Shown here: piece after piece, positions 30,732 to 54,982 of the stretch
How positions within the stretch are numbered: the first letter of the stretch is position 1
How the letters are laid out: every line of letters starts with the position of its first letter
DNA from: an uncultured Bacteroidales bacterium
Lineage (GTDB): Bacteria; Bacteroidota; Bacteroidia; Bacteroidales; UBA7960
Length of the DNA: 63,363 bases
Reading direction: 5' to 3'
Assembly (NCBI GenBank): GCA_964463915.1
Contig: CAYXEH010000009.1
Location: 1 to 63,363 of the forward strand
Translations under genes and position numbers: made by a program
The notes under the pieces: generated by a model
The model's input: the letters and a program-made list of their open reading frames with translations, nothing else
Databases searched by the model: none
What the model was told of the DNA's origin: nothing

Positions 30732-30748
30732 TTAACAAATTATTAACA
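30732..30748 (+). promoter_or_regulatory. OmpR/PhoB-type direct-repeat box TTAACA-N5-TTAACA
   Basis: ttaaca-aatta-ttaaca; second half-site starts 38 nt before TACATTTG. Confidence 0.65.
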
Positions 30749-30780
30749 AGTTCATTCATAGGGTTTTGCTTAAACCATTC

Positions 30781-30788
30781 TACATTTG
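30781..30788 (+). promoter_or_regulatory. -7 promoter element TACATTTG
   Basis: TAnnTTTG match ending 48 nt before ATG 30837. Confidence 0.6.
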
Positions 30789-30836
30789 AGAGGTCTAAAT
30801 GACGCATAATTCAAAAAAAATAAAATTGCGTTATTT

Positions 30837-32042
30837 ATGAAAGGTTTACAGATTATTTTAGTATTGTTGCAGTGTGCCGTAATTGGATTATTTATACATC
30901 AGCCCGTTACGGCGTTTGCGAATGAGAATGACACTAACCGGGAAGATAAGGAAATGACCAATGATGAAGAATCCGGGGAGTCGGAAGGAGATAGGGATAG
31001 GAGCAGCGAAAGCTATCCTTTTCTGATAATGGAAATGGGCGGGGAAACTTATTCCAAATATAGCCCTGAAGCCGGTGACGGGATTGGAGGACTCGCTGGC
31101 ATAATGGTTGACCTCGATGGAAACCTCAGTGAGCAGATGACATTTTTTGGAGCGTTGCATTTTGATTCTTCCTTGTGGCATGATTTTTTGAATAAACCTG
31201 CGTACATTCGAAAAGAGAATTCCAATAATGAGATCGGGATGGAGGTTGAAGAATTCTTTATTACCTGGAAGCCGGATATCGCAAATCTTGAATTTACGGC
31301 CGGCCGCATGTTTTCTGTAATTAGCTATGCCAATCAGTTACACATGTCCGATTTTCAGTTTAATATGAAACCACGGATTTTTACTGAATACTGGGGTGAC
31401 AATCACGGGTTGGCATTGGATGGAGGAAGCATAAAATGGCAATATGATGCTGGTCGTACCAGGACTGCTTTTCTGGTAGAGGCAGCCAGAAACGGATACC
31501 AGTCGGAGCATACAATGCTCACCTCTACAGTAGATTTCGCCTTTGATATGGGAAACGTTGATATGGGCCTGAGGGGATTCGGGTATTTTGATCACCAGGC
31601 AAATGATCACCCGTTTTTTAATAATATTCCGGCCAGTGATGCCCCATTTGTTGACGCCGTGGAGCTGAATGACGGACTTGGGATGAATGCCTGGGGAGGA
31701 GGTGCCAATTTCCTTTGGGATAGGCCGGGAGATCGTTCTGTATTCTTTCAAACCGAATGGGTAAACCGGAAATTTGCCAATGATAATTTCTTCGGAGGTT
31801 ATGCTTTTTTAGTGTTGAATCACACAGATAAGATCAGCAGCAGCATTATGTATCAGCAACTCGAGTTGCCGGACTTTGAATCCGGTGCAATCAATGTCAC
31901 TGAAGAGCAGGTTTATACAGTCGGTTTAACTTACCTCCCTGTATATAACCACCGATTGCGCCTGGAATACAATCATTTTACCGACAATTCATTCTATGAC
32001 AATATGCTGCTGGCGAAATGGACCTTTTTTATTGAAATCTGA
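30837..32042 (+). CDS. Outer-membrane beta-barrel/porin, possibly metal-uptake associated
   Basis: Signal peptide, acidic N-terminal extension, EEFF...AGRM...NQLH...P...G..G pattern, terminal beta-strand WTFFIEI. Confidence 0.55.
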   Translation: MKGLQIILVLLQCAVIGLFIHQPVTAFANENDTNREDKEMTNDEESGESEGDRDRSSESYPFLIMEMGGETYSKYSPEAGDGIGGLAGIMVDLDGNLSEQMTFFGALHFDSSLWHDFLNKPAYIRKENSNNEIGMEVEEFFITWKPDIANLEFTAGRMFSVISYANQLHMSDFQFNMKPRIFTEYWGDNHGLALDGGSIKWQYDAGRTRTAFLVEAARNGYQSEHTMLTSTVDFAFDMGNVDMGLRGFGYFDHQANDHPFFNNIPASDAPFVDAVELNDGLGMNAWGGGANFLWDRPGDRSVFFQTEWVNRKFANDNFFGGYAFLVLNHTDKISSSIMYQQLELPDFESGAINVTEEQVYTVGLTYLPVYNHRLRLEYNHFTDNSFYDNMLLAKWTFFIEI

Positions 32043-32053
32043 CAGCAATCCAA

Positions 32054-34318
32054 ATGATGCAATTTATGGACCGAAACACCCTGAAAACATCCAGTACCAA
32101 ATTCTTGTCATATCTGGCTGATAATAGATATGAAGTGCAAAACCTGAGACATGGTAATGCTGAAATAATATCGGGAATACGGATCATAATTTTGCTGCTT
32201 GTCTTTTTATTTACTGTGAACCCGGCAAGGAGCGATGAGGGGATGTGGTTGCTGCCGGTAATAGGTTCCGATAATATGGAGCAGATCCGCCTTCTGGGAG
32301 GCAATATGTCGGCAGAAGATATTTTCAGTAACGAAAAGATCAGCCTCAGTGATGCAGTGGTTAATGTGGGCAATATGGGGTCAGGGTCAGTGGTATCCGC
32401 CGGGGGATTGGTGCTGACCAATCACCATGTTATTTATGATCATATTCAGCGTCTAAGCACTGCGGAGAATGATTACCTCACAGAAGGGTTCTGGGCCTCT
32501 TCTCATGAGGAGGAACTCCCGGCGAAAGGATTGAGTGTGACATTCCTGAAGAAGATCATTGATGTCACCGACCAGGTAAAGGCTGAAATTGCTTCCCGCA
32601 GGGAAAGTGGTGAAAGGGCCTCCATGCTGATGATTGGCAGGAACCTCTCATCTGAATACACAGAAGGTACAAGTTACTCGGGGTTTTTGTCCAATCACTA
32701 CAAGGGAGGGAAATATTACCTATACATTTATGAAGTGTTTGAGGACGTTCGTTTGGTGGGATTTCCCCCTTCTTCCATAGGAAAGTTTGGTGGCGATGAG
32801 GATAATTTCATGTGGCCAAGGCACGCGGGCGATTTTGGTTTTATCCGCGTGTATGCTGACAAAGAAGGACAACCGGCAGATTATTCCCCGGACAATGTGC
32901 CCTATGTGCCTGATCGTTTCCTGGAAATTGATGCGGGAGGAATCGATGAATTGGATTTTTCTATGGTAATTGGTTATCCCGGGGGTTCCCAAAGGTATCT
33001 GACCGCATCCCAGGTGGAAGATCTGATGAAGGTGGAACATCCCGGACGCATAGCGGCCCGTAAACGACGACTTGACATCATCCGGGAGGAAATGCAAGCC
33101 AGTGATGAAGTCAGGATTAAATATGCGTCGAAATATTTCAATGCCACGAATGGATTGCAGCTATCACAAGGACAGTTAGAGCAACTTAAACAGCATAACG
33201 TTCCGGCCATTAAACGCGCCGAAGAAGAAGCATTCATGGCTTGGGTAGAGGATGATTCCGACAGGAGGGAAAAATACGGCAAAGTCCTGCAAACAATCCG
33301 CGAATCTGTTGAGAAAAAGCGTCCCACTGCCTATGCCCATCACTTGTTGAATGAAGCCATGCTGATGGGGACCGAGGTTTATGTGGCGGGCATTCGTGCC
33401 AATGTGTTTTACCGTAATCTGGATGAAGATGTCACCGGGGCGGAGTTTGCCGAGGCTGTTTCCGGATTTTCAGGCAGGCAATCCGGGTTTTACAAGGATT
33501 ATCATCCTCCTGCTGATCGTCGTGTGGTGGCTGCAATGATGGAATTGGTCAGTGAGGAATTGCCCCGGGAACACCAGCCTGACATTATTCATTATGCGGA
33601 TAGTGCATTTGACGGAGATTACCAGGAATTCGCAGCATATATGTTTGAGAACTCTTTCCTGACTTGTCCGGAGCGTTTTGAGCATTTTATCAACCACCCC
33701 CGGTTGAAAGTGATGCAAGACGATCCGGTGATCCGTTATTCAGCCAGTATTTATGATAAGGCCATTGAACTGCGTGACATTAACCGGGAGTTGTCGGAAG
33801 GGGAACGGGCTGGCTCCCGTCTGTATATGGAGGCAATCCGTGAAATGAATACAGATGAATCCATGTACCCGGATGCCAATTTCACCATGCGAATGAGTTA
33901 TGGGAAGGTGATTGGATACAGCCCCCGCGATGCGGTGTTTTATGAACATGAAACAACATTGCGGGGTGTGATGGAAAAGATGGATGCAGAAGACCCTGAT
34001 TTTACTGTTCCGGCTACACTTCAGTCATTATACTCCGGTAAGCGATTTAGCTCCTATGGGGAAAAGGACCGGATGCCGGTAAATTTCATCACGGATAATG
34101 ACATTACGGGAGGAAATTCCGGCAGCCCTGTCATTGGAGCGGACGGACGCCTGAAAGGGGTGGCTTTTGACGGCAACTGGGAATCGCTGGCCGGAGATGT
34201 GGTTTTTCTTCCTGATCTGAACCGGGCCATTCATGCAGACATCCGGTATGTGCTCTTTATCACGGATCAGTTTGCAGGGGCTTCACATATAATGAATGAG
34301 CTGAAAATCATTTATTAA
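32054..34318 (+). CDS. S46 dipeptidyl peptidase (DPP7-type), copy 1
   Basis: DEGMWL, TNHH, HAGDF, DANFTMR, ITGGNSGSP, FDGNWE; true start uncertain (long leader). Confidence 0.92.
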   Translation: MMQFMDRNTLKTSSTKFLSYLADNRYEVQNLRHGNAEIISGIRIIILLLVFLFTVNPARSDEGMWLLPVIGSDNMEQIRLLGGNMSAEDIFSNEKISLSDAVVNVGNMGSGSVVSAGGLVLTNHHVIYDHIQRLSTAENDYLTEGFWASSHEEELPAKGLSVTFLKKIIDVTDQVKAEIASRRESGERASMLMIGRNLSSEYTEGTSYSGFLSNHYKGGKYYLYIYEVFEDVRLVGFPPSSIGKFGGDEDNFMWPRHAGDFGFIRVYADKEGQPADYSPDNVPYVPDRFLEIDAGGIDELDFSMVIGYPGGSQRYLTASQVEDLMKVEHPGRIAARKRRLDIIREEMQASDEVRIKYASKYFNATNGLQLSQGQLEQLKQHNVPAIKRAEEEAFMAWVEDDSDRREKYGKVLQTIRESVEKKRPTAYAHHLLNEAMLMGTEVYVAGIRANVFYRNLDEDVTGAEFAEAVSGFSGRQSGFYKDYHPPADRRVVAAMMELVSEELPREHQPDIIHYADSAFDGDYQEFAAYMFENSFLTCPERFEHFINHPRLKVMQDDPVIRYSASIYDKAIELRDINRELSEGERAGSRLYMEAIREMNTDESMYPDANFTMRMSYGKVIGYSPRDAVFYEHETTLRGVMEKMDAEDPDFTVPATLQSLYSGKRFSSYGEKDRMPVNFITDNDITGGNSGSPVIGADGRLKGVAFDGNWESLAGDVVFLPDLNRAIHADIRYVLFITDQFAGASHIMNELKIIY

Positions 34319-34356
34319 GATAAATCAACAGATTCCCTTAACAAAATCATGCATCC

Positions 34357-36552
34357 ATGAATTATATATTAAGGAGCCGGAACGGATTTTTTGCGTTTAT
34401 TTTCTTTGTGATCTGTTTGTTCGCATTCAAACCAACACTGAAAGCGGACGAGGGCATGTGGTTACTTCCCTATCTCGAAGACCTGATCATGGAAGACATG
34501 GAAGAACTCGGACTAGAACTGTCTGCAGATCAAATCTACGCTGTCAATAATTCCAGTCTGAAAGATGCGGTGGTGATTTTTGGCAGTGGCTGTACCGGTG
34601 AAATTATTTCACCAGAGGGCTTATTGTTGACCAATCATCATTGCGGGGTGGACTTGTTTCAGGCATTAAGTAATACCGAAACCGATTACCTGGAAGAAGG
34701 GTTTTGGGCGATGAGCCAGGAAGAAGAGTTGCAGGTTCCCGGTCTTTCTGTTTCATTTCTGGTACGTGTTGAGGATGTGACTGACAGGGTTTTGTCTGCC
34801 TCCTCCGGTGATATGGATGATGAGGAAAGGAGCCGTGCCATTCGTCAGGAGCGAAGCAGGATTCAGCAGGAAGTTTCTGAGGAAGGTCCTTACAGGGGAT
34901 CGGTGGAACTCTTCAGAGTGGGAGATGTCGGGCAATATCTGCTTTTTGTGTATCAGGATTATGCTGACGTACGGTTGGTTGGCGCACCGCCTAACTCTAT
35001 CGGTCAATTTGGCGGCGATGAAGACAACTGGGAGTGGCCAAATCACAATGCCGACTTTGCCCTGTTTCGTGTATATATGCAATCTGACGGACAACCTTCT
35101 GAATCTTTCAACGAGCAGAATATACCTTATGAGCCGGCTCATTATTTTCCGGTTGCCCTTACCGGCCTGGATGAGGGTGATTTTGTGATGGCCATGGGGT
35201 ATCCGGGCATTACCAGCCGCTACCTGACTTCTTACGAAATTGAAGAAGAAATGGAAGTGGGAAACAAGATTCGTGCGGATATCCGGGGGAAGAGGCAGGA
35301 AATTTGGAAAGAAGCCATGGAAGAAGACGATGAGGTCCGGTTGCAGTATGCATCCAGGTATTTTAATTCCAGCAATTACTGGAAATATTCAATCGGTCAG
35401 AATGAAGCACTCAGGAACCTGGAAGTGATTGATGATGCCCGAAAACTGGAAGATCGTTTCCGTCAATGGGTCAGGGAGGATCCTGAAAGGGAGGAATCGT
35501 ACGGAGAGGCATTAACGCTCATTGAACACAGCATAAATGAGAGAAGAGAACGGGCATACAGTCATCAATTGATTATGGAAGCCCTGATCGGAAGTCAGTG
35601 TTATTTCCCCTATGGACGGCGAATACATACATTATATTCCCGGCTTATTGACGATGAATATGACCGTCATGATCTTGACAGCCGTGTTCAACGCCTTCGG
35701 GAGGCACTTGACAGGTTTTATGACTATCATATGCCTACTGAACGTGCTGTTCTTGAAGAATTGCTGCCTTACGTGATGCAGGAACTTCCAGAGGAGCATC
35801 AACCGGATTATTTCCGTGTTATTGAGGAGGAGTTTGATGGTTCAACGGATAACTTTATTGCATACCTGTTTGAAACCTCTGTAATGACTGACAGAGAACG
35901 AATAGAGGATTTTCTGCGGAATCCCGATGCAGAAAGACTGAAGAATGATCCTGGTTTTCATTTTACCAATTCGGTGTTTGATAAAGCAGTGGAGCTCAGG
36001 CAGCAAAACACGGCGATTACACGTCGTTTTCTGATTCCGGGGAAAAGGCTCTGGTATGAAGCCCTCAATGATATGATTGCCGAAAGGGAGTTGTATCCCG
36101 ATGCCAATTTCACCATGCGACTTACTTATGGGGGCGTAAAAGGTTATGAGTCAAGAGATGCTGTGATTTATGAACCTTTTACAACCCATGAAGGGATTAT
36201 AGAGAAAGTTGCACGCCATCCTGACCTGTATTCTCCTCCCGATGAACATATTGAGTTACTTACTTCAGGAGACTTCGGCCCGTATGGTGTTGATGGTATC
36301 CTCCCGGTTTCTTTCCTTTCAAATCTTGATATTACCGGGGGCAATTCCGGAAGTCCTGTGCTGAACAGTCGCGGGGAACTGGTTGGGATTGCTTATGACG
36401 GCAACTGGGAAGCCATGTCTTCTGATATTGCTTATTCTCCTGATTTTCAAAGGGCCATAAGTGTTGATATTCGTTACGTGCTATTTATGATTGATAAATA
36501 TGCCGGGGCAGGCTACCTGCTGGAGGAAATGGATATTATCGGTGTCAATTAA
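34357..36552 (+). CDS. S46 dipeptidyl peptidase (DPP7-type), copy 2
   Basis: ADEGMWL, GCTG, TNHHC, HNADF, DANFTMR, ITGGNSGSP, YDGNWE. Confidence 0.93.
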   Translation: MNYILRSRNGFFAFIFFVICLFAFKPTLKADEGMWLLPYLEDLIMEDMEELGLELSADQIYAVNNSSLKDAVVIFGSGCTGEIISPEGLLLTNHHCGVDLFQALSNTETDYLEEGFWAMSQEEELQVPGLSVSFLVRVEDVTDRVLSASSGDMDDEERSRAIRQERSRIQQEVSEEGPYRGSVELFRVGDVGQYLLFVYQDYADVRLVGAPPNSIGQFGGDEDNWEWPNHNADFALFRVYMQSDGQPSESFNEQNIPYEPAHYFPVALTGLDEGDFVMAMGYPGITSRYLTSYEIEEEMEVGNKIRADIRGKRQEIWKEAMEEDDEVRLQYASRYFNSSNYWKYSIGQNEALRNLEVIDDARKLEDRFRQWVREDPEREESYGEALTLIEHSINERRERAYSHQLIMEALIGSQCYFPYGRRIHTLYSRLIDDEYDRHDLDSRVQRLREALDRFYDYHMPTERAVLEELLPYVMQELPEEHQPDYFRVIEEEFDGSTDNFIAYLFETSVMTDRERIEDFLRNPDAERLKNDPGFHFTNSVFDKAVELRQQNTAITRRFLIPGKRLWYEALNDMIAERELYPDANFTMRLTYGGVKGYESRDAVIYEPFTTHEGIIEKVARHPDLYSPPDEHIELLTSGDFGPYGVDGILPVSFLSNLDITGGNSGSPVLNSRGELVGIAYDGNWEAMSSDIAYSPDFQRAISVDIRYVLFMIDKYAGAGYLLEEMDIIGVN

Positions 36553-36607
36553 GGAGGTCAGCATGAACCTTGAAGATGCTTTCATCGGTTTGACAGGAAA
36601 ATATTAA
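36542..36607 (+). pseudogene. 3' relic of a second ABC ATPase gene (contains mini-ORF MNLEDAFIGLTGKY, 36563-36607)
   Basis: Translates VSIKEVSMNLEDAFIGLTGKY* versus KSVEEVKMNLEDAFIGLTGKY* at the end of the intact ATPase 38561-39451. Confidence 0.85.
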
Positions 36608-37372
36608 TCCAAACAGGATAAAATAACGTTGCCATGTATAAATCAATTATTTACAAGGAATGGTTAAAGATACGTTGGGCACTGGCCTTATTCCTGGTTG
36701 CCGGTTTGCTGACACTGGTGAATATTTTTCTGAACGTGCGTTACGGTATACGTTTTATGGATGCCCATGAGTTCTGGTACGGGATAATCATCCAGGGCGG
36801 CAACTATGCGGCATCCTTTAAGTATATCCCCTTATTTGCCGGGTTGGGGCTTGCTGTTTCCCAGTATTATCCTGAGATTCTGGATCAGCGGATTAAACTG
36901 ACCTTTCATCTGCCCATCCGGGAAAACAAGGTATTGCTATTGCAGCATGGGTTCGGACTGGTGTGCCTTTTGGCTGTTTACCTGGTTTACGTGGTTATTT
37001 TCATTACCGGCAGTGGGCTCTACTTTCCAGCGGAGGTGACTGTGATGATTGGTCAAACGATTCTGCCCTGGTTTCTTGGCGGGCTGGCCACTTATTCGCT
37101 TGTGGCCCTGATCATGCTCGAGCCCCTTTGGCTTTACCGGGTGTTGTATGCGGTAATCGCCTATGGTCTGGTGTCTCAGTATTATATAGAAGCGGTTCCG
37201 ATGGCTTATACCCGGGTTATGTGGGTATTTGCTTTGTTCTCGGTAGCCACTGTAATTGTTCAATTATTTTCAGGATACAGATTCAGGAAAGGAGAGATGC
37301 ATCATGGTTAAGATAAGCAGGTATGTATTGGTACTGATCGGGATCATTGTTACTGCCATAGCAATTCCGGAG
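36581..37372 (+). repeat. 792-bp direct repeat, copy 1
   Basis: No mismatch found by eye against 39425-40216 (offset 2844); ORF-track translations in three frames are identical. Confidence 0.92.
36634..37311 (+). CDS. ABC transporter membrane subunit (about 6 TM), copy 1
   Basis: YKEWLK...QYYPE...RIKLTFHLP; hydrophobic; adjacent to ABC ATPase. Confidence 0.75.
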   Translation: MYKSIIYKEWLKIRWALALFLVAGLLTLVNIFLNVRYGIRFMDAHEFWYGIIIQGGNYAASFKYIPLFAGLGLAVSQYYPEILDQRIKLTFHLPIRENKVLLLQHGFGLVCLLAVYLVYVVIFITGSGLYFPAEVTVMIGQTILPWFLGGLATYSLVALIMLEPLWLYRVLYAVIAYGLVSQYYIEAVPMAYTRVMWVFALFSVATVIVQLFSGYRFRKGEMHHG

Positions 37373-38542: not shown

Positions 38543-38560
38543 ATGATCCATTAAAACCTA

Positions 38561-41417: not shown

Positions 41418-41434
41418 TGTTAACTAGTTGTTAA
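41418..41434 (-). promoter_or_regulatory. TTAACA-N5-TTAACA box (reverse orientation) upstream of the TonB-dependent receptor
   Basis: Plus strand tgttaa-ctagt-tgttaa. Confidence 0.55.
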
Positions 41435-41582
41435 GGGTAAAAGTTTTTGTAGATTTTTTGTCATTTGCTTTGTATATTGGGAAGGTCTTAAAGGAATACC
41501 GGGATCAGTTTAAGAGTATTCCTTATAAAAGCCGACATAGTTAATAGCAATTATTTTTATTGACCAGTAAATAGTGGGTTTA

Positions 41583-44456: not shown

Positions 44457-44476
44457 TCATCAAAAACCCAAACACT

Positions 44477-45682: not shown

Positions 45683-45710
45683 AAACATGATTAATTATTA
45701 ATAAAGGATT

Positions 45711-45739
45711 GCAGTGCAGGCATTTAAGGCCTGCACTGC
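45711..45739 (+). other. Intercistronic GC-rich stem-loop (mRNA stabiliser or weak terminator)
   Basis: gcagtgcaggc / gcctgcactgc perfect 11-bp stem, 7-nt loop, no long T-run. Confidence 0.65.
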
Positions 45740-45765
45740 TTATCCCAATCAACTTACTTGTTGGA

Positions 45766-47343: not shown

Positions 47344-47414
47344 GATGTATTGCTGTTTCGCAACTGACTTATCTAATTTGGGTCTTTAACCCCATGCAGC
47401 ATGGCAGGCTGAAT

Positions 47415-48116: not shown

Positions 48117-48135
48117 AAGAGTTAACAGTATTGGA

Positions 48136-49401
48136 TTAGTTTTTATCGATTGATGGCAGAAAAATACTGAAGGTCGTGCCCTTATTCAGGTCGCTTTCCA
48201 CTTCAATGTTCCCTTGATGGGCATTCACCATTTCTTTTACATAATACAGGCCTAAGCCAAATCCCTTGGCATTATGCAGGTTGCCGGTAGGAACCCTGTA
48301 AAATTTGTCAAAAATATGGGGGATGTATTCTTTTTTGATGCCGATGCCATTGTCCCGGAAAGAGATGACAATGCCATTGTTGGTGTTCTTTGTGCCAATG
48401 GTAACATGCACATCGTTGTTTGAATATTTGGACGCATTGCTGATCAAGTTGGTCACGATGTTGTAAAAATGCATTTCATCAACAAATGCCATCGGGTCTG
48501 TTGCATTGTATTGATACGTCAGGGAGATGCGTTTTTCAAACTGCTCGAGGCATAAAGAATTGATGGCTTCATTGATCAGGTCGTGGATATTCTTATAAGA
48601 AAATTTCAGTTTAAATTCTGTTTTTTGAAGCAAAGCCATTTTCAGAATGTACTCCACCTGGGTCTTCATGCGGTTGTTCTCCTCCTGTATAATTCGGGAA
48701 TAATGCCTGACTCTTTCCTCTGCGGCCTTTGGATCAGATTTTAACAACACCTCAGATGCCAGGGATATGGTGGATAAGGGGGTCTTGAATTCATGCGTCA
48801 TGTTATTGATGAAATCATTTTTGATATCTGCGACCTTTTTCTGTTGCATAAAACGAAAAATTACAAAGTAAAGTAACCAACCGACGGAAATCAGTAAAAT
48901 CGCAGACAAGGTCAGCCAAAACCACATTTCCCGGAGAAGAAACTGCTGTTTGTTTGGAAAAAAGACGCCCAGCTGATAGTTCTCCGTTTGCCATGAAGAA
49001 CAATTTTCATGTGGTTTCAGGGAGATGGTGTTGCTGAAAATCCCCCGGTTTACGTTTTCATCATTGACATTGATCAAACTGTATTCGTAATTCTCAAGCA
49101 AGTCGTAGTTGCGAAAGACATTTTCGAGGGTGACTTCCAGGAAGTCGTAATTAATGACATGTTCCAGGTGGCTTACTTCAGGGTCATAATTCTCACATTC
49201 TGTATTGGTACAGCCCCTGTAGGATTCTGTGGAGGATGCCAGGATATCAACCACCTCATTCAGCGCCAGGGTTACCCGATGGTCGTACTGTTCTTCTGAC
49301 AGGTCAAGGGCATTGGATATCCACCGTAACTGTGAGATACCCAGTCCGCTGAGAACAACCGCAGAAAAGACAATAATCAATATGAACTGTTTCTTGCTCA
49401 C
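48136..49401 (-). CDS. Sensor histidine kinase (RprX-like), GTG start
   Basis: Two TMs, FINNMTHEFKTP H-box, NLISNASKY, DNGIG, FDKFYR, GFGLGL. Confidence 0.93.
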   Translation of the reverse strand: MSKKQFILIIVFSAVVLSGLGISQLRWISNALDLSEEQYDHRVTLALNEVVDILASSTESYRGCTNTECENYDPEVSHLEHVINYDFLEVTLENVFRNYDLLENYEYSLINVNDENVNRGIFSNTISLKPHENCSSWQTENYQLGVFFPNKQQFLLREMWFWLTLSAILLISVGWLLYFVIFRFMQQKKVADIKNDFINNMTHEFKTPLSTISLASEVLLKSDPKAAEERVRHYSRIIQEENNRMKTQVEYILKMALLQKTEFKLKFSYKNIHDLINEAINSLCLEQFEKRISLTYQYNATDPMAFVDEMHFYNIVTNLISNASKYSNNDVHVTIGTKNTNNGIVISFRDNGIGIKKEYIPHIFDKFYRVPTGNLHNAKGFGLGLYYVKEMVNAHQGNIEVESDLNKGTTFSIFLPSIDKN

Positions 49402-49419
49402 CGGAATGAATATATGTAA

Positions 49420-49447
49420 ATAACTGTGGTTTAACGAACAATTAACA
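49420..49447 (+). promoter_or_regulatory. Triple 11-bp-period box ATAACT-N5-TTAACG-N5-TTAACA between kinase and M16 genes
   Basis: Last half-site starts 38 nt before TATTTTTG (49480-49487), same geometry as at 30743/30781. Confidence 0.65.
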
Positions 49448-49589
49448 GCCTGCCTGTTGTGCCGTCGCCGAAATCTGCTTATTTTTGATTATCAAAAAGA
49501 TATGATGCATTAAACCGATGCAAAATAAGGAAATTTGCCTTAACATACAAGCTCAGATTTCGTTAAGTTTTTCTTAAATATTCAGCATT

Positions 49590-52511
49590 ATGAGCCACCA
49601 AACAATGAAAAAAAATTTTGTATTTCTTTTTGTTTTTACTTTGCTGCCAGTTATTCTGCCAGCCCAAAGCTCTTACGAATACGAGAGTTTTCCGGACGAT
49701 CCGCTAGATGCCAGGATTTATACCCTGGATAACGGGTTGAAGGTTTATTTGTCTCCGACGGATGCAGAACCCCGTGTTCAGGCTTATGTAGCCGTTCGCG
49801 TGGGCAGCAAGAACGATCCGGCTGAAACTACGGGGCTGGCCCATTATTTTGAGCACCTGATGTTTAAAGGCACATCCACGTTTGGTACCATCGACTGGGA
49901 GAAGGAAGAACCTTTACTTGATGAGATTGAGGATCTGTTTGAGCTTTACCGGGAAGAAACAGATAAAGAAAAGCGGGCTGAAATTTATGCAAAAATTGAC
50001 AGTATTTCCTATGTGGCATCTACCTATGCCATTCCCAATGAATATGTCCGGTTGATGACCTCCATTGGTTCAAACGGAACCAATGCTGCCACATCCAATG
50101 ATTATACTTTTTATGTGGAAAATGTTCCGGCAAACAGGCTGGAGCACTGGGCCAGAATTCAGGGCGAACGATTCAGCGATCCTGTGATCCGCTTGTTTCA
50201 TACAGAACTGGAAACGGTTTATGAAGAATTGAATATGTCACAGACCAATGACCGGCGTATGACTTTCCAGGCCCTGAATGAAGCACTTTATCCAAATCAT
50301 CCCTACGCAAAACAAACCACATTGGGTGAGCCCGAACACCTGAAAAATCCGTCTATAATCAATATCAAACAGTTTTATGAAGATTATTATGTACCCAATA
50401 ACATGGCCGTTATACTTGCGGGTGATTTTGATCCCGATGAGGCCATACAGATCGTGGATAGGTATTTTGGCCATATGGAGCCTTCTCCTGTTCCGGAGTT
50501 TGACTTTCCGGAAGAAACTCCTTTAACTGAACCGGTGGTTAAGGAAGTGGAAGGGCTTGGTTCTGAGTTTTTGCAGCTGGGGTGGCGATTTAATGGTCCG
50601 TCTTCAGAGCAATTGCCCTACCTGGATCTTATGAGTAATATTTTGGGTAACGGACGTGCCGGCCTGGTTGACCAGAATATTAACAAACCAATGAAAGCAG
50701 GGGGTGTTTCAGCCAAGACAACGACACAGGCGGATTATTCCAGGTTGGAAATGTTTGGCCGCCCAAAAGATGGTCAGACCATGGAAGAAGTAAGGGATTT
50801 ATTGCTTGAACAGGTTGAATTGCTTCAAAGTGGTGATTGGCCCGATTGGATGTTGGAAGCTGCTAAAAACAATATTCGCCTTAACCGGGAGAGGCGCCAC
50901 ACCAGGCTGACCAACAGGGCACGTGATATGGCCATGAGTTTTCTGTATGATGTGCCTTATGAACAGACTGTCGATTATCTAAAACGCCTGGAGGAAATAA
51001 CCAAAGAAGAGGTTGTGGAGTTCGCAAGGGAGCATCTTTCTGTAAATGCTTATGCCGTGGTTTATAAACGACAGGTAGAAGAAATGGATGTGGAATTGGT
51101 TGAGAAGCCCGCTATTACTCCCATACATATCAATCGTAATGCACGCTCTGATTTGCTTATTGAAATGCAGGAAGCGGAAGTAACTCCTATTGAGCCGGTA
51201 TTTCTTGATTACGAGCGTGACCTGGTCAGGACATATCTGCCTAACGGTTCAGAATTTCTGTATGTACACGATGATGAGGAACCCAGATTTCACCTGGCTT
51301 TCAGCTGGGAGAAAGGCAGCAACCATGAACCAATGATGGACCATTTCGGGAGGTATTTTAGCCTGGTTGGAGCGGATGATATGGAAGTGGAGGATGTCGG
51401 CAATGCTTTTTATATTCTGGCCAGCAATTTTAGTATCAGGGTGTCGGGGAACGAAACCCGCATTACCCTTCACGGGTTGACAGAAAATTTTGAACAAAGT
51501 CTGGAATTGCTTGATCGTTTTATCTGGAATGTCCATGCCGACGATAAAGCATTGGCCGACCATCTTGCCAGTGAAAAGCGTAGCCGCAGAAACAGACCTA
51601 CCAGTCAACAGTCGATATTGTCAGCTCTTGAAAACTATGCCACATATGGTCCCCATAACCCCACCACACATACCATGACCAATGAAGAGCTGGATGAGAT
51701 CACTGCGCAGGAACTGGTTGATCTGTTACATGGCCTGTTTGACTATGAACACCAGGTTACATATACCGGCCCGCATAATATGCAGGATGTGATTCGAATG
51801 CTGCAGGTGTACCACCGGGCTTCGGATACACTGAAAGACACTCCAGAAAACTTTTATTTTGAACCTCTGGATACAGAGGAGGAAAAAGTATACTTTGCCC
51901 ATTATGATGCTTCCCAGAGCTACCTGCAAACAATTAGCAAAAGCGATGTGTATGACCCGGAACTTGAACCCTTGGTCAATTTATATAACCGGTATTTTTC
52001 TGGAGGGATGAATGCCATTGTGTTCCAGGAAATGCGGGAGAAGCGTGGATTGGCCTACATGGCGCATTCGAACTTTTCCGGATCTTCCAGGAAAAACGGG
52101 CACTATACAAATACCAGCGTAATTGCTACCCAGAATGACAAGATAATAGAAGCCTTTCATGCTTTTAATGAATTATTCAATGACATGCCATTGACTGAGT
52201 CGACGTTTAAACTGGCACAGGATCGTATTGTTTCCAATATCCGCACCGAACGTTTCGGCGGCGGGCTTATAATAATCAGATATTTGAATGACAGGGAAAT
52301 GGGGTCTTCGGTGGACACACGACGGAGGATTTTTGAGGAAACCCCTCATCTGACTCTTGATGATGTGAAATCTTTTAATCATAAATTCATCAGAAACCGC
52401 CCGAAAACTTACATTGTGCTGGGTAACGAGAAGGCTATTGATTTTGAAGCACTTGAAAGGGAATTCGGCGAAGTGATCCGGCTTACTACGGATGATCTTT
52501 TTCCATACTGA
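49590..52511 (+). CDS. M16 (insulinase/pitrilysin-like) zinc peptidase, exported
   Basis: Signal peptide, GLAHYFEHLMFKG (HxxEH), NAATS.D.T, MREKRGLAY; start 49590 or 49605. Confidence 0.93.
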   Translation: MSHQTMKKNFVFLFVFTLLPVILPAQSSYEYESFPDDPLDARIYTLDNGLKVYLSPTDAEPRVQAYVAVRVGSKNDPAETTGLAHYFEHLMFKGTSTFGTIDWEKEEPLLDEIEDLFELYREETDKEKRAEIYAKIDSISYVASTYAIPNEYVRLMTSIGSNGTNAATSNDYTFYVENVPANRLEHWARIQGERFSDPVIRLFHTELETVYEELNMSQTNDRRMTFQALNEALYPNHPYAKQTTLGEPEHLKNPSIINIKQFYEDYYVPNNMAVILAGDFDPDEAIQIVDRYFGHMEPSPVPEFDFPEETPLTEPVVKEVEGLGSEFLQLGWRFNGPSSEQLPYLDLMSNILGNGRAGLVDQNINKPMKAGGVSAKTTTQADYSRLEMFGRPKDGQTMEEVRDLLLEQVELLQSGDWPDWMLEAAKNNIRLNRERRHTRLTNRARDMAMSFLYDVPYEQTVDYLKRLEEITKEEVVEFAREHLSVNAYAVVYKRQVEEMDVELVEKPAITPIHINRNARSDLLIEMQEAEVTPIEPVFLDYERDLVRTYLPNGSEFLYVHDDEEPRFHLAFSWEKGSNHEPMMDHFGRYFSLVGADDMEVEDVGNAFYILASNFSIRVSGNETRITLHGLTENFEQSLELLDRFIWNVHADDKALADHLASEKRSRRNRPTSQQSILSALENYATYGPHNPTTHTMTNEELDEITAQELVDLLHGLFDYEHQVTYTGPHNMQDVIRMLQVYHRASDTLKDTPENFYFEPLDTEEEKVYFAHYDASQSYLQTISKSDVYDPELEPLVNLYNRYFSGGMNAIVFQEMREKRGLAYMAHSNFSGSSRKNGHYTNTSVIATQNDKIIEAFHAFNELFNDMPLTESTFKLAQDRIVSNIRTERFGGGLIIIRYLNDREMGSSVDTRRRIFEETPHLTLDDVKSFNHKFIRNRPKTYIVLGNEKAIDFEALEREFGEVIRLTTDDLFPY

Positions 52512-52533
52512 TCGGTATGGTTGGTTTGAGTGA

Positions 52534-52568
52534 AAGAGGGCTGTCTCATGTTTTGAGACAGCCCTCTT
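52534..52568. terminator. Perfect 15-bp palindrome between convergent M16 and S9 genes
   Basis: aagagggctgtctca / tgagacagccctctt, 5-nt loop. Confidence 0.7.
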
Positions 52569-52624
52569 CCGATTTACGGAGAAAACTCCGCAACCGGATA
52601 GATCCTGGTTCGGATTTTAATGTG

Positions 52625-54982
52625 TTACAATTCTCCGAACGAATATTCTTCAGGAGGTTCAACTCCTTTAAGATGACGGACAAAATAATCCCAGCGTGCC
52701 CGCATCATATAGGCTTCACCATAATAACCATGCCTTCTGTTCGGAAACATGATCATGTCAAAATCCTTATTTGCTTCAATTAGTGCATTCACTACCAGGT
52801 ATGTGCTGTAAGGCGGTACATTGGTGTCCATGGTCCCATGGGTAATCAGCAACTTACCTTGCAGGTTTTCAGCGAGCAGCTGGTTGGCCTGGTTGTCATA
52901 ATTGGTCGTTTTCTCACCTGTTTCTTCATCCTCATTGGTTTCCAGTAAGCCCTGCCATTTTTCAGCCCAGGAGTCAGTATAGTTCCTGTTGTCATGGTTC
53001 CCGGCACCGGAAACCGCCACATGGAAAAAATCAGGATACTCCAGCAACGCCCTGGTGGAGGCAAAGCCACCGCCAGAGTGTCCGAATATCCCGATCCGGT
53101 CTATATCCATGTATGGGTAACGTTCAACCATTTGTTCGATCATGGTGATATGATCCGGCAGTCCATTGTCTCCCATATTGCCGTAATAGGCATCATGAAA
53201 GGCTTTTGAGCGCCCCGGGGTGCCCATGGCATCCACTTCGACGACAATAAATCCAAGCTCAGCCAATGACTGCTTGTCGGAGCGGGACGCACTGAAGGAA
53301 CGGCTGCCCACACTCCCTGTTTGCGGTCCGGGATAGATATAAACCAGTATGGGATAGGAGGCGGACTCATCAAAATTGGTGGGTTTGTACTTGATGCCCC
53401 ATAGATCCGTTACTCCGTCGCGGGCTTTGACCGTGAACTCAATGGGGGGCTGCCATCCGGTTTCTTTTAATTTGGTGATGTCTGTTTCCTCCAGCATCAT
53501 GACTGTGCCACCGTTTTTGTCAAGGATGTGGGTGATGGGCGGGGTATCCGGGGTAGACCAGGCGTCGGTGAAATATTCACCGGAATCAGACAGGCTGATG
53601 CTATGATTGGCTTTCTCCGGGGTAAGCAGCGTCAGATTTTCTCCGCTCATGTCGATCCGGTAGAAGTATTCATAATAGGGATTGCCTTCTTCGCGGCAGG
53701 AGCCGGTGAAATAGACCTTCCTGTCATTGATGTCGATATGATGTACCGTCATGACATTCCAGTCGCCGCTGGTTATCTGGTGATTCAATTCTCCGCTTTG
53801 CAGGTCATAAAGGTACAGATGCCCCCAGTTGTCACGCTGAGAAAACCAAACTACTTCATCTGTTTCAGGAAACACATGCCAGTTGGAGATCATGTTATGG
53901 CCTGATTCGAAAAAAGTCTCAGTTTCCTCACGGAGTACATCACGCACCTCTCCATTGTCCGGATCAGCGATTCTGAGTTGTGCCACCTTGAAATCCCGGG
54001 ATACAGAAACAAATGAAAGGTAATTGCTATCCTGGCTCCACTTTACATCCAACAGATCGCCCGCCCTGTCAGCAATATGGTCAGTCAGGGTGGACCGTTG
54101 CATGTCCGGGTCCATTTGCAACCTGACCAGGTCGGGTTCATTTCCCAGGTTTATAACCACCCGTTCAATTCTAAATATCAGGCTGTCGCCGGGAAGGGGG
54201 TATTTCCATTTATGCAATGAGCCGTGGCCCACTTCGGTAGTTGCCATGAACATTTCCCTTACGCCGCGTGCATCATGTTGAAATGTGGCGATTCGGCGTG
54301 AGTCGGGTGACCATTTGACAACCGGTTTGTTGCGTCTGGACCATCCGGCATTGTTGGTTCCGTAGCCATAGTCCTCCTCACCGTCAAAAGTTAGTTGGGT
54401 ATGGGTGCCCGTTTCCAGGTCCCGCAACCAGAGATTGTGGTCTTTGATATAAACTGCTTTTGTGCGATCAGGAGACAAAGATTCGTTGTTCAGGCCTGCT
54501 TCGGTGTCTGCAGGTTTGCTTTCAATGCTGTAATCATCCAGCGAACAGGTGTATTCAGTGTTTCTGATATGAAATGTGATGCTATCCATGTCATCCGAAA
54601 AACGGAAGTTTCTGAAAGGGAGGTTCAGCGGTTCCACCTCATCTTCAAGCTCTGAAGAAAGGGCATTGGCCATCCGGAGGTGGTCGAACGCACGCTCTTT
54701 GTTTCCGGTTGCAGGATTGGCCAGAATAAACTCCGTGCCACCTTCTATGGAGTTTCTGTATACCAGTAAGTCACCTTGTTGCCACTGGAATCCGGAGGGG
54801 GCATTGTGCACCAGGGGGGAGGTGTGGGTCGCAAGGAACTTTTCCGCCCGCTGATAGTCTTCTTCAGTTACTTCCTGTGCGAGTAACTCCGGACCCGTCG
54901 CCAGGAAGATGAGGAATGCCGACATGGCCATAACAGCCGCATACAATTTTTTAACGCCATTTTTGTTGATTCTTGTCATCAT
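52625..54982 (-). CDS. S9B dipeptidyl-peptidase IV family protein, exported
   Basis: WSPDS propeller, YPGPQ, GHSGGG nucleophile, HGTMDTNV, RRHG; start moved to MM at 54982/54979 before the signal peptide. Confidence 0.9.
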   Translation of the reverse strand: MMTRINKNGVKKLYAAVMAMSAFLIFLATGPELLAQEVTEEDYQRAEKFLATHTSPLVHNAPSGFQWQQGDLLVYRNSIEGGTEFILANPATGNKERAFDHLRMANALSSELEDEVEPLNLPFRNFRFSDDMDSITFHIRNTEYTCSLDDYSIESKPADTEAGLNNESLSPDRTKAVYIKDHNLWLRDLETGTHTQLTFDGEEDYGYGTNNAGWSRRNKPVVKWSPDSRRIATFQHDARGVREMFMATTEVGHGSLHKWKYPLPGDSLIFRIERVVINLGNEPDLVRLQMDPDMQRSTLTDHIADRAGDLLDVKWSQDSNYLSFVSVSRDFKVAQLRIADPDNGEVRDVLREETETFFESGHNMISNWHVFPETDEVVWFSQRDNWGHLYLYDLQSGELNHQITSGDWNVMTVHHIDINDRKVYFTGSCREEGNPYYEYFYRIDMSGENLTLLTPEKANHSISLSDSGEYFTDAWSTPDTPPITHILDKNGGTVMMLEETDITKLKETGWQPPIEFTVKARDGVTDLWGIKYKPTNFDESASYPILVYIYPGPQTGSVGSRSFSASRSDKQSLAELGFIVVEVDAMGTPGRSKAFHDAYYGNMGDNGLPDHITMIEQMVERYPYMDIDRIGIFGHSGGGFASTRALLEYPDFFHVAVSGAGNHDNRNYTDSWAEKWQGLLETNEDEETGEKTTNYDNQANQLLAENLQGKLLITHGTMDTNVPPYSTYLVVNALIEANKDFDMIMFPNRRHGYYGEAYMMRARWDYFVRHLKGVEPPEEYSFGEL

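Follow-up and report, generated by a model that had tools for sequence, protein, structure and literature searches.

A lineage-specific locus joining a TonB-dependent receptor cassette to a porin and periplasmic peptidases in an uncultured Bacteroidales bacterium

Results

Gene content of the locus

The window is the whole stretch of 63,363 nucleotides that was analysed, from an uncultured Bacteroidales bacterium. The host DNA belongs to salt-lake and microbial-mat Bacteroidales, and it is found in hypersaline-lake and microbial-mat metagenomes. The features of the locus, with positions in the window, are as follows.

30732–30747, +: Box 1, TTAACAAATTATTAAC, in the intergenic region between a divergent GltS-like gene and the porin gene, ~90 nt before the latter
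30837–32042, +: rare OmpF-like porin (barrel401), 401 aa, predicted to be 16-stranded; signal peptide, acidic low-complexity linker
32054–34318, +: S46 dipeptidyl-peptidase a (DPP7-like), periplasmic; Pfam Peptidase_S46, E 4e-214
34357–36552, +: S46 dipeptidyl-peptidase b (DPP7-like); Pfam Peptidase_S46, E 9e-225; 42% identity to a
36544–36608, +: ABC ATPase gene remnant (3'-end), upstream of permease 1 (alignment)
36582–37372, +: perfect direct repeat, copy 1, ~791 nt, holding the permease and the first ~25 DUF4857 codons
36634–37311, +: ABC-2-type permease 1, 225 aa, ~6 TM helices; no Pfam family
37304–38542, +: DUF4857a; Pfam 2e-79
38561–39451, +: ABC ATPase, exporter-like ABC-2 class; Pfam ABC_tran
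39426–40216, +: perfect direct repeat, copy 2 (alignment)
39478–40155, +: ABC-2-type permease 2, 225 aa; no Pfam family
40148–41386, +: DUF4857b; Pfam 1e-83
41419–41435, −: Box 2, TTAACAACTAGTTAAC (minus-strand reading), ~150 nt upstream of the TonB-dependent receptor gene
41574–44456, +: non-SusC TonB-dependent receptor (TBDR), 960 aa; CarbopepD_reg_2 and Plug
44477–45682, +: DUF4876 surface lipoprotein, putative TBDR lid; Pfam 7e-35; lipobox Cys followed by EDD
45709–47343 (ATG start 45766), +: DUF6850 outer-membrane beta-barrel with a C-terminal F; Pfam 7e-62
47415–48116, −: OmpR-family response regulator, RprY-like; Pfam
48136–49401, −: histidine kinase; two TM segments, periplasmic domain of ~130 aa containing Cys
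49431–49446, +: Box 3, TTAACGAACAATTAAC, between the histidine kinase and M16 genes
49590–52511, +: periplasmic M16 metallopeptidase with two M16/M16_C halves (Pfam); signal peptide, HYFEH
52625–54982 (also listed as 52625–55060), −: S9B DPP4-like dipeptidyl-peptidase, DPPIV_N and Peptidase_S9, convergent with the M16 gene

Pfam profile searches bore out all the gene calls of the original prediction, including DUF4857, DUF4876 and DUF6850, and found neither a glycoside hydrolase nor a SusD among the locus genes, as it had stated. The first gene, which had been called simply an outer-membrane barrel, matched no Pfam or NCBIfam family. Its AF2 model (pLDDT 79) has 16 strands and in Foldseek most resembles porins of the OmpF/OmpC/OmpK36 type (E 4e-12, TM 0.55–0.64). 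The porin is rare, with 24 homologues in 5.8 billion proteins; among 401 genomes of the order, 3 carry it.

All four peptidases have a signal peptide and intact catalytic motifs, as had been claimed; the motifs were read by eye from the translations. In the S46 pair the signal peptide is followed by DEGMWL, and TNHH, D and GNSGSP are present, while the S9 enzyme has GHSGGG, D and H. S46a scores 689 bits against the NCBIfam Dpp7 model, under its cut-off of 1200. The M16 peptidase matches generic M16B peptidases (3e-24) better than it does 6b03/6brs (2e-10), which we take to be FusC entries, or PqqL (1e-10). Orthologues of the S9 enzyme with at least 69% identity are found in 6 of 25 genomes of the genus.

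The TBDR is indeed not of the SusC type, scoring 45.8 bits against the SusC model TIGR04056 (cut-off 368). No sequence relative was found among PDB structures at E ≤ 0.01, a set that presumably includes FusA and YddB. DUF4876 matches PDB entry 4q1z, a 'putative lipoprotein' (2e-31). The idea that DUF4876 acts as a lid is put forward in bioRxiv 10.1101/2023.03.17.533168, where AlphaFold-Multimer models of these lids are described as leaving an opening of ~20 Å into the barrel. The Atlas cluster of the gene that follows DUF4876 is named 'DUF6850 family outer membrane beta-barrel protein'.

The ABC-2/DUF4857 module

Between the S46 pair and the receptor trio the original prediction had seen two permease–DUF4857 pairs served by one ATPase. 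This content stands, but the two permeases are identical (225/225 residues) and lie in the perfect repeat, and an additional ATPase remnant lies upstream. Independent assemblies break at the repeat edges. In two related genomes (G023 and G018) a first ATPase and an ECF sigma module are still found at the position of the remnant, which marks their deletion here.

DUF4857a and DUF4857b are 55% identical. The AF2 model of DUF4857b (pLDDT 85) gave only weak propeller-type matches in Foldseek (TM ≤ 0.27), and by homology to it DUF4857a would have an N-terminal TM helix, a beta-rich periplasmic domain and C-terminal helices. A complex model of the permease with DUF4857b scored 0.81 and the best of three controls 0.00. 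Among solved complexes 58 of 80 score this high, against 2 of 110 mismatched pairs; both counts are rough because our own alignments were used in the complex modelling. Contacts agreed between runs to at least 96%, with a partner pLDDT of at least 84, and they take in the N-terminal helix of DUF4857, inside the perfect repeat. The modelling thus supports binding of the permease to DUF4857b.

The dual-specificity ABC module first proposed was rejected as an importer. The best NCBIfam matches of the ATPase are PmtA, GldA, DrrA and NodI, which places it nearest to exporter-type ABC-2 proteins, and an import module of dual specificity has no basis because no solute-binding protein is found at the locus.

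A direct-repeat box at three promoters

The three forward units had been said to share an operator box. The pattern TTAAC-N6-TTAAS has four matches in the 63 kb window at only three sites (30732; 41419/41420; 49431), all of them promoters of the locus. The number expected by chance is 0.19 and none of 100 shuffles reached four, a statistic that is circular since the pattern was derived from the same three sites. The independent test is retention of the box at the corresponding promoters of other species. Orthologous promoters in G018, G023, G002, L030, L115, L116, L124 and L125 retain the 16-nt core between flanks that have diverged. Within the genus, the box persists at these promoters in species with protein identities of only 33–85%. 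Box 1 is identical and in the same position in G023 (L006), L115, L116 and G002 (L007), and Box 3 is identical in G018 and G023. The orientation of the box is constant for each target across species; Box 2 is inverted relative to the TBDR gene in all five species or loci that have it. In 1.7 Mb of loci, only three matches (L067, L088 and L091) fall in loci outside the lineage.

The regulator adjoining these promoters scores 285 bits against NCBIfam RprY, under the equivalog cut-off of 370, and homology of the kinase to its counterpart in G023 spans residues 1–421. This RprXY-like pair of histidine kinase and OmpR-family regulator likely binds TTAACA-N5-TTAACA, which has an 11-bp period. The conserved direct-repeat box at three promoters and the adjoining OmpR-family two-component system support the view that the locus genes are one unit within this lineage. 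Two features of the box count against a single regulon. The TBDR box runs in the opposite orientation to the other two and may therefore act differently, and no box lies upstream of the S9 gene, which may therefore be a mere co-conserved neighbour, as had been suspected from its convergent orientation.

Arrangements within the genus

DUF4876 is present in 5 of 25 genomes of the genus. The S46 type found at the locus occurs in all five of these and in none of the other 20, which have housekeeping S46 types only. At least four layouts place the cassette beside peptidases, porin and RprXY-like system.

Window, G018, G023 and L115: porin–S46a–S46b–ABC–TBDR trio–RR–HK–M16–S9
L116: box–porin–S46a–box–TBDR–DUF4876
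G002: box–S46–TBDR–DUF4876–DUF6850–RR–HK–porin–M16–S9
G012: S46–TBDR–DUF4876

In G002 the end of the S46 gene abuts the start of the TBDR gene, in one operon. The trios of G002 and G012 are merely 33–35% identical to that of the window, and therefore two trio subtypes adjoin S46. Contigs from RNA libraries are only 90–95% alike to the locus and thus come from a relative; they demonstrate presence only.

It might be argued that these genes are mere neighbours, brought together by accident at a rearrangement-prone site by the GltS-like gene, and that the box is unrelated or non-functional. Synteny does break at GltS in genus genomes without the locus, the layout of the ABC region is different in each of three species, and another 13 matches to the box elsewhere in the genome adjoin unrelated genes (5 places checked). 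Against this, orthologous promoters share an unchanged box core despite the divergence of flanks and proteins, the five-of-five against none-of-20 co-occurrence holds, and several layouts are rearranged yet linked. We regard this explanation as very improbable.

Other observations within the genus count against the composite reading. A second TBDR–DUF4876–DUF6850–HEAT locus in the window's own genome (contig C17) has no peptidase, and S46b of G018 has an internal stop. The peptidase-linked cases all come from a single genus or close kin (GltS 83–95% identical) and are few independent events.

The cassette elsewhere in the Bacteroidota

Outside the genus, the ABC-2/DUF4857 genes, TBDR, DUF4876 and DUF6850 form a self-contained cassette that is widespread in Bacteroidota. 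Among 75 such loci (42 of them at least 18 kb long) the TBDR is present in 75, DUF4876 in 74 and DUF6850 in 71, following DUF4876 in all 71. Of the three ABC components, 29 loci have one or more and 23 have the full set. S46, S9 and porin genes are absent from the neighbourhood of all 75, and a single locus has an M16, a distant one. The peptidases are therefore dispensable for the general function of the cassette, and the combination is genus-specific and no property of the system.

The partners of the cassette elsewhere are an ECF sigma factor, FecR, a polyferredoxin-like Fer4_5 membrane protein and a HEAT-repeat protein, with PepSY proteins in B. theta and a Metal_resist/LTXXQ-like sensor in 7 of 14 members, all of these sensor matches being sub-threshold or weak. 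Apart from the HEAT-repeat protein, these partners suggest a metal chelate that is freed by reduction rather than a peptide, which also counts against the composite reading. Homologues of the cassette are induced when iron or haem is scarce: PMC10434189 reports BT3625-33 of B. thetaiotaomicron up 37–128-fold and PG1019-22 of P. gingivalis up 20–214-fold under iron depletion. In 2026 PG1019/20 is still termed an 'uncharacterised transport system' in PMC13096392.

The locus could then hold two functions under one switch, the cassette taking up iron or another metal chelate, as is probable for its relatives, and the porin, S46, M16 and S9 serving ordinary periplasmic peptide nutrition, with no substrate in common. 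This fits the 75 loci in which the cassette is found alone with sigma, FecR, metal-sensor-like and redox partners, as well as its induction by iron limitation. It also fits the relatives of the porin, some of which have only a two-component system alongside (L125, G310) and others an M14 carboxypeptidase but no TBDR (L120, L122, L123). It accords less well with the abutting S46 and TBDR genes of the G002 operon and with the two trio subtypes, 33% identical, that both adjoin S46. Moreover, the polyferredoxin-like and HEAT-repeat proteins are missing here, where the ECF sigma module is also gone from the genome, and these usual redox and HEAT partners are absent exactly where the peptidases occur. 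We consider two separate functions possible, if somewhat unlikely.

Comparison with known systems

BT3625-33 shares DUF4857, an ABC ATPase, DUF4876 and a TBDR with the window locus, and PG1019-22 shares DUF4876 and a TBDR and has hypothetical proteins in addition, as described in PMC10434189. In both, as here, the DUF4876 lipoprotein adjoins a non-SusC TBDR (PMC10434189; bioRxiv 10.1101/2023.03.17.533168). Unlike the window locus, neither has peptidases, a porin or an RprXY-like system, and the B. theta locus instead encodes a pair of PepSY proteins and carries a fimbrillin-family gene. The two DUF4857 paralogues and two identical permeases set the window locus apart from both.

The Fus system of Pectobacterium and YddAB-PqqL of E. 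coli are loci that combine a periplasmic M16 protease with a TonB-dependent receptor and an ABC transporter, according to PMC6793856, which describes protease-associated import for Proteobacteria and in whose main text 'Bacteroidetes' has no occurrences. The original prediction had drawn the Fus analogy, and the logic of receptor, M16 and ABC does match. By sequence, however, the TBDR is no relative of FusA and the M16 is only generically related, being nearer to M16B; the window locus also goes beyond these systems in its lid lipoprotein, second barrel, S46 and S9 exopeptidases and porin. On a Fus-like model, a whole iron or metal protein would be captured and brought in through the TBDR; M16 would cut it and the dipeptidyl-peptidases would trim it, with the DUF4857 ABC importing the cofactor or peptides. 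Such piracy has precedent in the ferredoxin-importing systems described for Proteobacteria (PMC6793856; PMC6071955; PMC6042079). PMC6793856 also suggests that a redox enzyme may free the cofactor where a protease is absent, which parallels peptidases here and PepSY or polyferredoxin elsewhere, and both the opening in the DUF4876 lid models and the presence of the organism's DNA in hypersaline-lake and microbial-mat metagenomes would be compatible with it. The lack of a TBDR relative among solved structures, the M16 scores, the exporter-like ABC-2 class without a binding protein, the absence of a TonB-like FusB gene from the locus and the restriction of the association to one genus all speak against it, and we think it improbable.

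In P. gingivalis, S46 and S9 dipeptidyl-peptidases produce dipeptides in the periplasm once peptides have been taken up. RagAB, in which a barrel with a surface lipoprotein lid carries out TonB-dependent peptide uptake in this asaccharolytic member of the Bacteroidota, is a precedent within the phylum for TonB-dependent peptide import (bioRxiv 10.1101/755678). RagA is of the SusC type and RagB of the SusD type, whereas the window locus has DUF4876 as its lid and a TBDR that falls short of the SusC model. Capnocytophaga Ics had been likened to the present receptor set as a TBDR–lipoprotein–barrel system; the likeness fails, as the secondary source PMC5429918 describes Ics as a PUL-type system of seven genes.

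In its regulation the locus resembles EnvZ/OmpR and RprXY: an OmpR-family regulator lies beside its kinase, the direct repeat has a period of 11 bp, and the target that varies least is an OmpF-like porin. The locus differs from RprXY in the sub-cut-off RprY score, and no RprY binding site was found in the limited literature searched. NosDFY has an ABC-2 permease and ATPase with a periplasm-facing partner and no solute-binding protein, and the ABC genes of the canonical cassette adjoin a NosR/NapH-like Fer4_5 membrane protein. Unlike NosDFY, no NosF, NosY or NosD is among the top NCBIfam matches, and DUF4857 is predicted to be beta-propeller-like and anchored in the membrane at both ends.

Discussion

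The original prediction had pictured an analogue for proteins of a polysaccharide utilisation locus. What survives of this is one co-located, box-linked unit in the lineage; the combination is genus-specific, however, and the ABC is of the exporter-like ABC-2 class. Our preferred reading, to which we give an even chance, is a lineage-specific composite regulon of cassette, porin and peptidases, apparently under one two-component switch. The regulator, likely bound to the box, would control three units: the OmpF-like porin with the two DPP7-type S46 peptidases and the downstream ABC-2/DUF4857 genes; the TBDR with its DUF4876 surface lid and DUF6850 barrel; and the periplasmic M16 peptidase.

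The ligand captured and imported by the lid and TBDR would be peptide-like or bound to a peptide and might carry a metal; the periplasmic M16 would cut it, and S46 and S9 would trim the products to dipeptides. At the inner membrane, the permease and two DUF4857 paralogues may form an ABC-2 complex with periplasmic beta-rich domains that handles cargo on the periplasmic side or exports something. The locus hints at uptake and digestion of a peptide-like nutrient, and in this genus the widespread cassette may have been inserted into, or recruited to, a porin–peptidase cluster.

Gene content of the locus

The source genome is a 2.7 Mb draft in 109 contigs, and the window is one entire contig, C9, of 63,363 bases. 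Each of the gene families originally predicted at 30.7-55.1 kb was confirmed by Pfam: Peptidase_S46 (two), DUF4857 (two), one ABC ATPase, a TonB-dependent receptor (TBDR), DUF4876, DUF6850, a response regulator (RR), a histidine kinase (HK), M16 and DPPIV_N/S9. The original prediction was borne out in every detail of its observation that could be tested. All three DUF families score above their curated Pfam cut-offs, DUF4876 with 121 bits against 27.9, DUF6850 with 211 against 27, and the two DUF4857 genes with 267 and 281 against 25. Each DUF4857 gene is preceded by a gene for a 225-residue membrane protein without a Pfam family, here called the permease. The features are as follows.

30732, box 1, upstream of the porin gene
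30837-32042, forward, predicted porin
32054-36552, forward, S46a and S46b peptidases
up to 41386, forward, ABC-2/DUF4857 region
41419/41420, box 2, upstream of the TBDR gene
41574-47343, forward, TBDR, DUF4876 lipoprotein and DUF6850 barrel (the trio)
47415-49401, reverse, OmpR-type response regulator and histidine kinase
49431, box 3, between the kinase and M16 genes
49590-52511, forward, M16 peptidase
downstream to about 55.1 kb, convergent, DPPIV_N/S9 peptidase

All four peptidases have the signal peptide and catalytic motifs claimed for them, as read from the translations: TNHH, D and GNSGSP in the S46 pair, HYFEH in M16, and GHSGGG, D and H in S9. The S46 pair carries the domain (Pfam E 4e-214 and 9e-225) with its His-Asp-Ser triad, and scores 689 and 717 bits against the NCBIfam Dpp7 model, under the equivalog cut-off of 1200; we take the glycine of their DGNWE motif to be DPP7-like.

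The source organism's DNA was found in two runs of a second study (hypersaline lake, microbial mat), with 87% of the sampled words; its source may be a third run. Immediately before the locus, at 27088-29192, a BPD_transp_1 permease is encoded beside an ABC ATPase that has a CBS domain. Osmoprotectant uptake systems typically show this pairing, which would accord with the saline habitat to which those runs point. Contigs from two salt-lake RNA libraries cover the porin, S46a, ATPase, TBDR, DUF4876, RR and HK genes and the start of M16, which marks presence in RNA libraries and not transcription, its level or co-regulation. No inference can be drawn from the parts left uncovered, namely DUF4857b, the repeated permeases and most of the 5' part of TBDR. 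Since these contigs are 90-95% alike to the window, they come from a relative of the source organism.

The porin and the outer-membrane trio

The first gene of the locus encodes 401 residues and matches no sequence family in Pfam or NCBIfam. Its AF2 model (16 strands, pLDDT 79) finds the OmpF, OmpC and OmpK36 porins as its best Foldseek matches (E 4e-12, TM 0.55-0.64), and the protein is thereby predicted to have the 16-stranded general-diffusion porin fold. The family is rare, with 24 homologues in 5.8 billion proteins and members in 3 of 401 genomes of the order. Relatives also occur in other settings. One directly follows a DUF6850 gene in L124; in L125 and in G310 (L107), a genome of a distant family, the neighbour is the two-component system alone, and in G310 the porin, OmpR-type regulator and kinase form an operon with another TBDR opposite. 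In L120, L122 and L123 the relative adjoins an MsrB gene and a gene for an M14 carboxypeptidase of 977 aa that has a MAM-like domain.

The TBDR has CarbopepD_reg and Plug domains (Pfam). It had been called a non-SusC receptor, and indeed scores 45.8 bits against the TIGR04056 cut-off of 368.25. The predicted absence of SusD and of glycoside hydrolases from the locus was likewise upheld by Pfam, so this is not a SusC/SusD polysaccharide utilisation locus (PUL). The DUF4876 protein begins with a lipoprotein signal, its cysteine followed by EDD, and has a structural-genomics relative in PDB 4q1z (2e-31). Price and Arkin suggest that non-SusC TonB-dependent transporters are lidded by DUF4876 proteins, note an opening of ~20 A in their models and report no fitness phenotype across 519 conditions (bioRxiv 10.1101/2023.03.17.533168). 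The DUF6850 protein ends in phenylalanine, and its Atlas cluster is named outer-membrane beta-barrel.

When the window is compared with G023, a genome of the same genus, amino-acid identity declines from the flanks inward.

Table. Amino-acid identity between the window and G023
Flanking genes: 93-94%
HK, RR, S9, ATPase: 85-90%
S46, M16, porin: 72-78%
DUF4857: about 60%
TBDR and DUF4876: 50-53%
DUF6850: 36%

The trios of G023 and a further congener, G018, are 78/83/64% identical to each other; those of G002 and G012, also of the genus, form a different subtype, 33-35% identical to the window's. Because the identity of the window trio (50/52/36%) lies far under that of the flanks (93%) and the ATPase (85-91%), and metagenome-assembled genomes (MAGs) from outside the genus are as close to it (53%) as the congeners are, the surface parts turn over or are replaced much faster than the rest of the locus. 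The divergence between congeners points to replacement or diversifying selection of these parts.

The ABC-2/DUF4857 module

The two permeases are identical at 225/225 residues, and the DUF4857 pair, 55% identical overall, is nearly identical across the N-terminal helix. The underlying DNA carries a perfect repeat of ~791 nt (36582-37372 = 39426-40216), with the remnant of an ATPase 3' end upstream of the first copy (region from 36544). We rejected an assembly artefact as its cause. In contigs of another study that are at least 99% alike, S46b is joined to permease 1, and DUF4857a-ATPase to permease 2; the contigs break at the repeat edges, with none alone spanning a whole copy. Since independent contigs bridge its junctions the repeat is real and no artefact of this assembly. 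The artefact reading is also opposed by the two DUF4857 copies found in two congeners, in differing layouts: sigma-x-y-z-DUF4857a-ATPase-permease-DUF4857b in G018, and sigma-x-y-z-ATPase-permease-DUF4857a-DUF4857b in G023 and locus L115. The ECF sigma module and the first ATPase are lost from the window. The different layouts of the three congeners, together with the perfect repeat, suggest a tandem duplication, followed by recombination between the DUF4857 5' ends and by deletion of the sigma module.

Among NCBIfam models the ATPase comes nearest to those of exporter-type ABC-2 ATPases (PmtA, GldA, DrrA and NodI). DUF4857b is modelled (pLDDT 85) with an N-terminal transmembrane helix, a beta-rich periplasmic domain and C-terminal helices; a Foldseek search of the PDB gave weak WD40/propeller-type matches (TM <= 0.27), from which the fold assigns no function. 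When the permease and DUF4857b were modelled together, the score was 0.81 and that of the best control 0.00. Of 80 solved complexes 58 reach this mark, as do 2 of 110 mismatched pairs, counts that hold only roughly here since the alignments used were our own. At least 96% of contacts agree between runs, with partner pLDDT of at least 84. The model supports binding of DUF4857b by the permease, and the predicted contact includes the DUF4857 N-terminal helix, which itself lies within the 791-nt repeat.

A conserved candidate operator

A shared operator box had been proposed, and TTAAC-N6-TTAAS occurs in the window only at the three sites listed, ahead of the porin and TBDR genes and between HK and M16. 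This gives 4 matches against 0.19 expected, and none of 100 shuffles reached 4; the pattern was derived from these same sites, so that the real test lies in the promoters of other species.

Table. Occurrence of the 16-nt box core in congeners and fetched loci
G018: TBDR and HK/M16 promoters
G023: TBDR, HK/M16 and porin promoters
G002: upstream of S46-TBDR; upstream of porin
L030: TBDR promoter
L115: porin promoter
L116: porin and TBDR promoters
L124, L125: porin promoters

The flanks of the box vary among species and its orientation is constant for each target: at porin, S46 and M16 promoters the box runs with the gene, at all TBDR promoters against it. The 1.7 Mb of fetched loci hold 24 matches, a number that includes double counts from loci fetched twice, and most are the orthologous promoter sites; only 3 fall in unrelated loci (L067, L088, L091), and one more lies outside the mapped genes (L006, position 19969). 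In the distant G310 locus, no box was found between the porin and the two-component genes. The M16 and kinase genes of G018 are separated by an insertion of 5.5 kb (L003 4321-9625), which encodes a secreted protein of 1383 aa and a repeat protein of 376 aa and has identical copies of box 3 on both sides.

Alignment of the sites gives TTAACRA-N4-TTAACA. As a direct repeat with a period of 11 bp, it has the form usual for sites of OmpR/PhoB-family regulators. The best NCBIfam model of the regulator is RprY, at 285 bits and thus under the equivalog cut-off of 370; with its adjacent kinase we file it as RprY-like, and we infer that it binds the box. No published RprY binding motif was found in PMC3646045 and PMC6032018. 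An extended regulon was not found either: 13 of the 17 matches in the 2.7 Mb genome lie outside the locus, and the 5 places checked among them hold unrelated genes (HisRS/NYN, Yip1, a TBDR, MutS and a kinase).

Two other explanations of the locus were weighed. The genes may be mere neighbours, which seems very unlikely with the box kept at porin, TBDR and M16 promoters of several species. Alternatively, cassette and peptidases may share regulation without sharing a substrate, which we regard as somewhat unlikely.

Distribution within the genus

DUF4857 is present in 3 and DUF4876 in 5 of 25 genomes of the genus. The housekeeping type of S46 is nearly universal among the 25, and S46 genes of the locus type occur in all 5 genomes with DUF4876 and in none of the 20 others. 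G002 has, at the same site flanked by the GltS-like gene, the order S46-TBDR-DUF4876-DUF6850-RR-HK-porin-M16-(MsrB-like)-S9 without the ABC module, the end of S46 abutting the start of TBDR. G012 has S46-TBDR-DUF4876, and the metagenome contig L116 porin-S46a-TBDR-DUF4876. A simple island between conserved flanks was rejected: G016, G017, G008 and G019 are syntenic on the left up to GltS and unrelated on the right.

The S46b orthologue of G018 (C186:24088-26181; L004 4079-6322) has an internal TAA giving two ORFs, and is either a pseudogene or a sequencing error. A second trio stands on contig C17 of the source genome (L009 11477-17218), preceded by a LuxR-type regulator and a kinase and followed by two ~730-aa proteins (L009 9178-11376 and 6852-9059), one a confirmed HEAT-repeat protein; that locus has no peptidases.

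The cassette outside the genus

We examined the best 80 of 216 confirmed DUF4876 relatives, in one-genome-per-species contigs with flanks of +/-10 kb. Seventy-five lie outside the genus, 42 of them at least 18 kb long. In the window and throughout these 80, one strand carries TBDR, lipoprotein and barrel in this order, often with ATPase-permease-DUF4857 beside them.

Table. Components in the 75 non-genus loci (of the best 80 of 216)
TBDR: 75
DUF4876: 74
DUF6850: 71
HEAT-repeat protein (~726 aa): 42
ABC ATPase: 27
DUF4857: 26
Permease: 25
ECF sigma factor: 24
Fer4_5 polyferredoxin-like membrane protein: 23
Amino-acid permease: 16
FecR: 7
All three ABC parts together: 23

No relative of S46, S9 or the porin was found in these 75 loci, and a single, distant M16 in L053, both with tblastn and with phmmer run over every ORF of 90 aa or more. 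The expectation that the genes are conserved together thus stands within the genus, through the locus-type S46, but fails in these 75 loci outside it. On these counts, the canonical cassette is a 12-gene unit without a peptidase.

Its genes are a small ORF, an ECF sigma factor, a Metal_resist-like membrane protein with a conserved cysteine cluster, a small ORF, the Fer4_5 polyferredoxin-like protein, ATPase, permease, DUF4857, TBDR, DUF4876, DUF6850 and the HEAT-repeat protein, as in L031, L021, L025 and about 20 loci like them. Of 14 members of the sigma module's small membrane protein, 7 match Metal_resist and 3 match LTXXQ, weakly or below threshold; the protein retains the cysteine cluster. 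In many Rikenellaceae-type MAGs the canonical cassette adjoins genes for ribosomal proteins S12, S7 and S10 and EF-G-type genes.

According to PMC10434189, BT3625-33 comprises DUF4857, a hypothetical protein, an ABC ATPase, two PepSY, a fimbrillin-family protein, two DUF4876 and a TBDR, and rises 37-128-fold on iron depletion, as PG1019-22 does 20-214-fold. In that paper and PMC13096392, induction of the cassette by iron or haem limitation is described for these two loci only; the latter, from 2026, still calls PG1019/PG1020 an 'uncharacterised transport system' that rises together with haem-uptake genes.

Discussion

Protease-associated import of the Fus type (TBDT, M16 and ABC) is established and has been surveyed in Proteobacteria (PMC6793856). 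The analogy drawn originally holds in this shared logic but not in TBDR family membership: phmmer found 0 matches for the receptor among all PDB chains at E <= 0.01, a comparison of sequence and not of fold, and by it the TBDR is not of the FusA/YddB family of Fus/YddAB-PqqL. The M16 protein, which has a signal peptide and is encoded 5 kb from the TBDR, matches PqqL (6ofs, 1e-10) and 6b03/6brs (2e-10), which we take to be FusC, more weakly than the M16B structure 3amj (3e-24). With no PDB relative of the TBDR and an M16 nearer to M16B than to PqqL or 6b03/6brs, the likeness would be one of logic, not of membership, and a full Fus-like metalloprotein model appears improbable. A secondary source describes Capnocytophaga Ics as a PUL-type seven-gene locus using transferrin (PMC5429918); our locus lacks SusC and SusD. 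TonB-dependent peptide import exists in the phylum in RagAB (bioRxiv 10.1101/755678). We found no earlier description of the combination of porin, peptidases and cassette in the literature searched, supplements aside.

The locus is best read as a genus-specific composite, in which a widespread cassette has come to stand with a porin and periplasmic peptidases under a single conserved operator. We give about even chances to a real functional coupling, in which peptide-like or peptide-bound cargo would first be imported and then trimmed by the peptidases.

A broader and rather doubtful proposal is that the DUF4876-lidded TBDR cassette is the Bacteroidota counterpart of proteobacterial protease-associated import and takes up an iron-bearing peptide or small protein, for which ferredoxin-like proteins would be an obvious source in cyanobacterial mats. 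The metal might be freed in the window's genus by M16 and then S46 and S9, and in other lineages by reduction through PepSY or polyferredoxin partners, with the ABC-2/DUF4857 complex handling cargo at the periplasmic face.

Smaller yields of the analysis are a candidate operator for an RprXY-like system, a rare OmpF-like porin family, a predicted permease-DUF4857 complex and evidence that outer-membrane parts turn over far faster than their flanks. The locus is of value mainly for the lead it gives to what an unexplained and highly induced transport system of the Bacteroidota carries. In B. thetaiotaomicron and P. gingivalis, the genes that iron limitation induces most strongly include the TBDR-DUF4876-DUF6850/DUF4857 cassette. 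In the window's lineage its usual redox and HEAT partners are swapped for peptidases, with both halves behind one conserved operator, and this gives a concrete and testable clue that the cargo is peptide-linked. Should this prove right, protease-associated TonB import would reach beyond the Proteobacteria, in which it has been described so far, into the Bacteroidota with unrelated parts.
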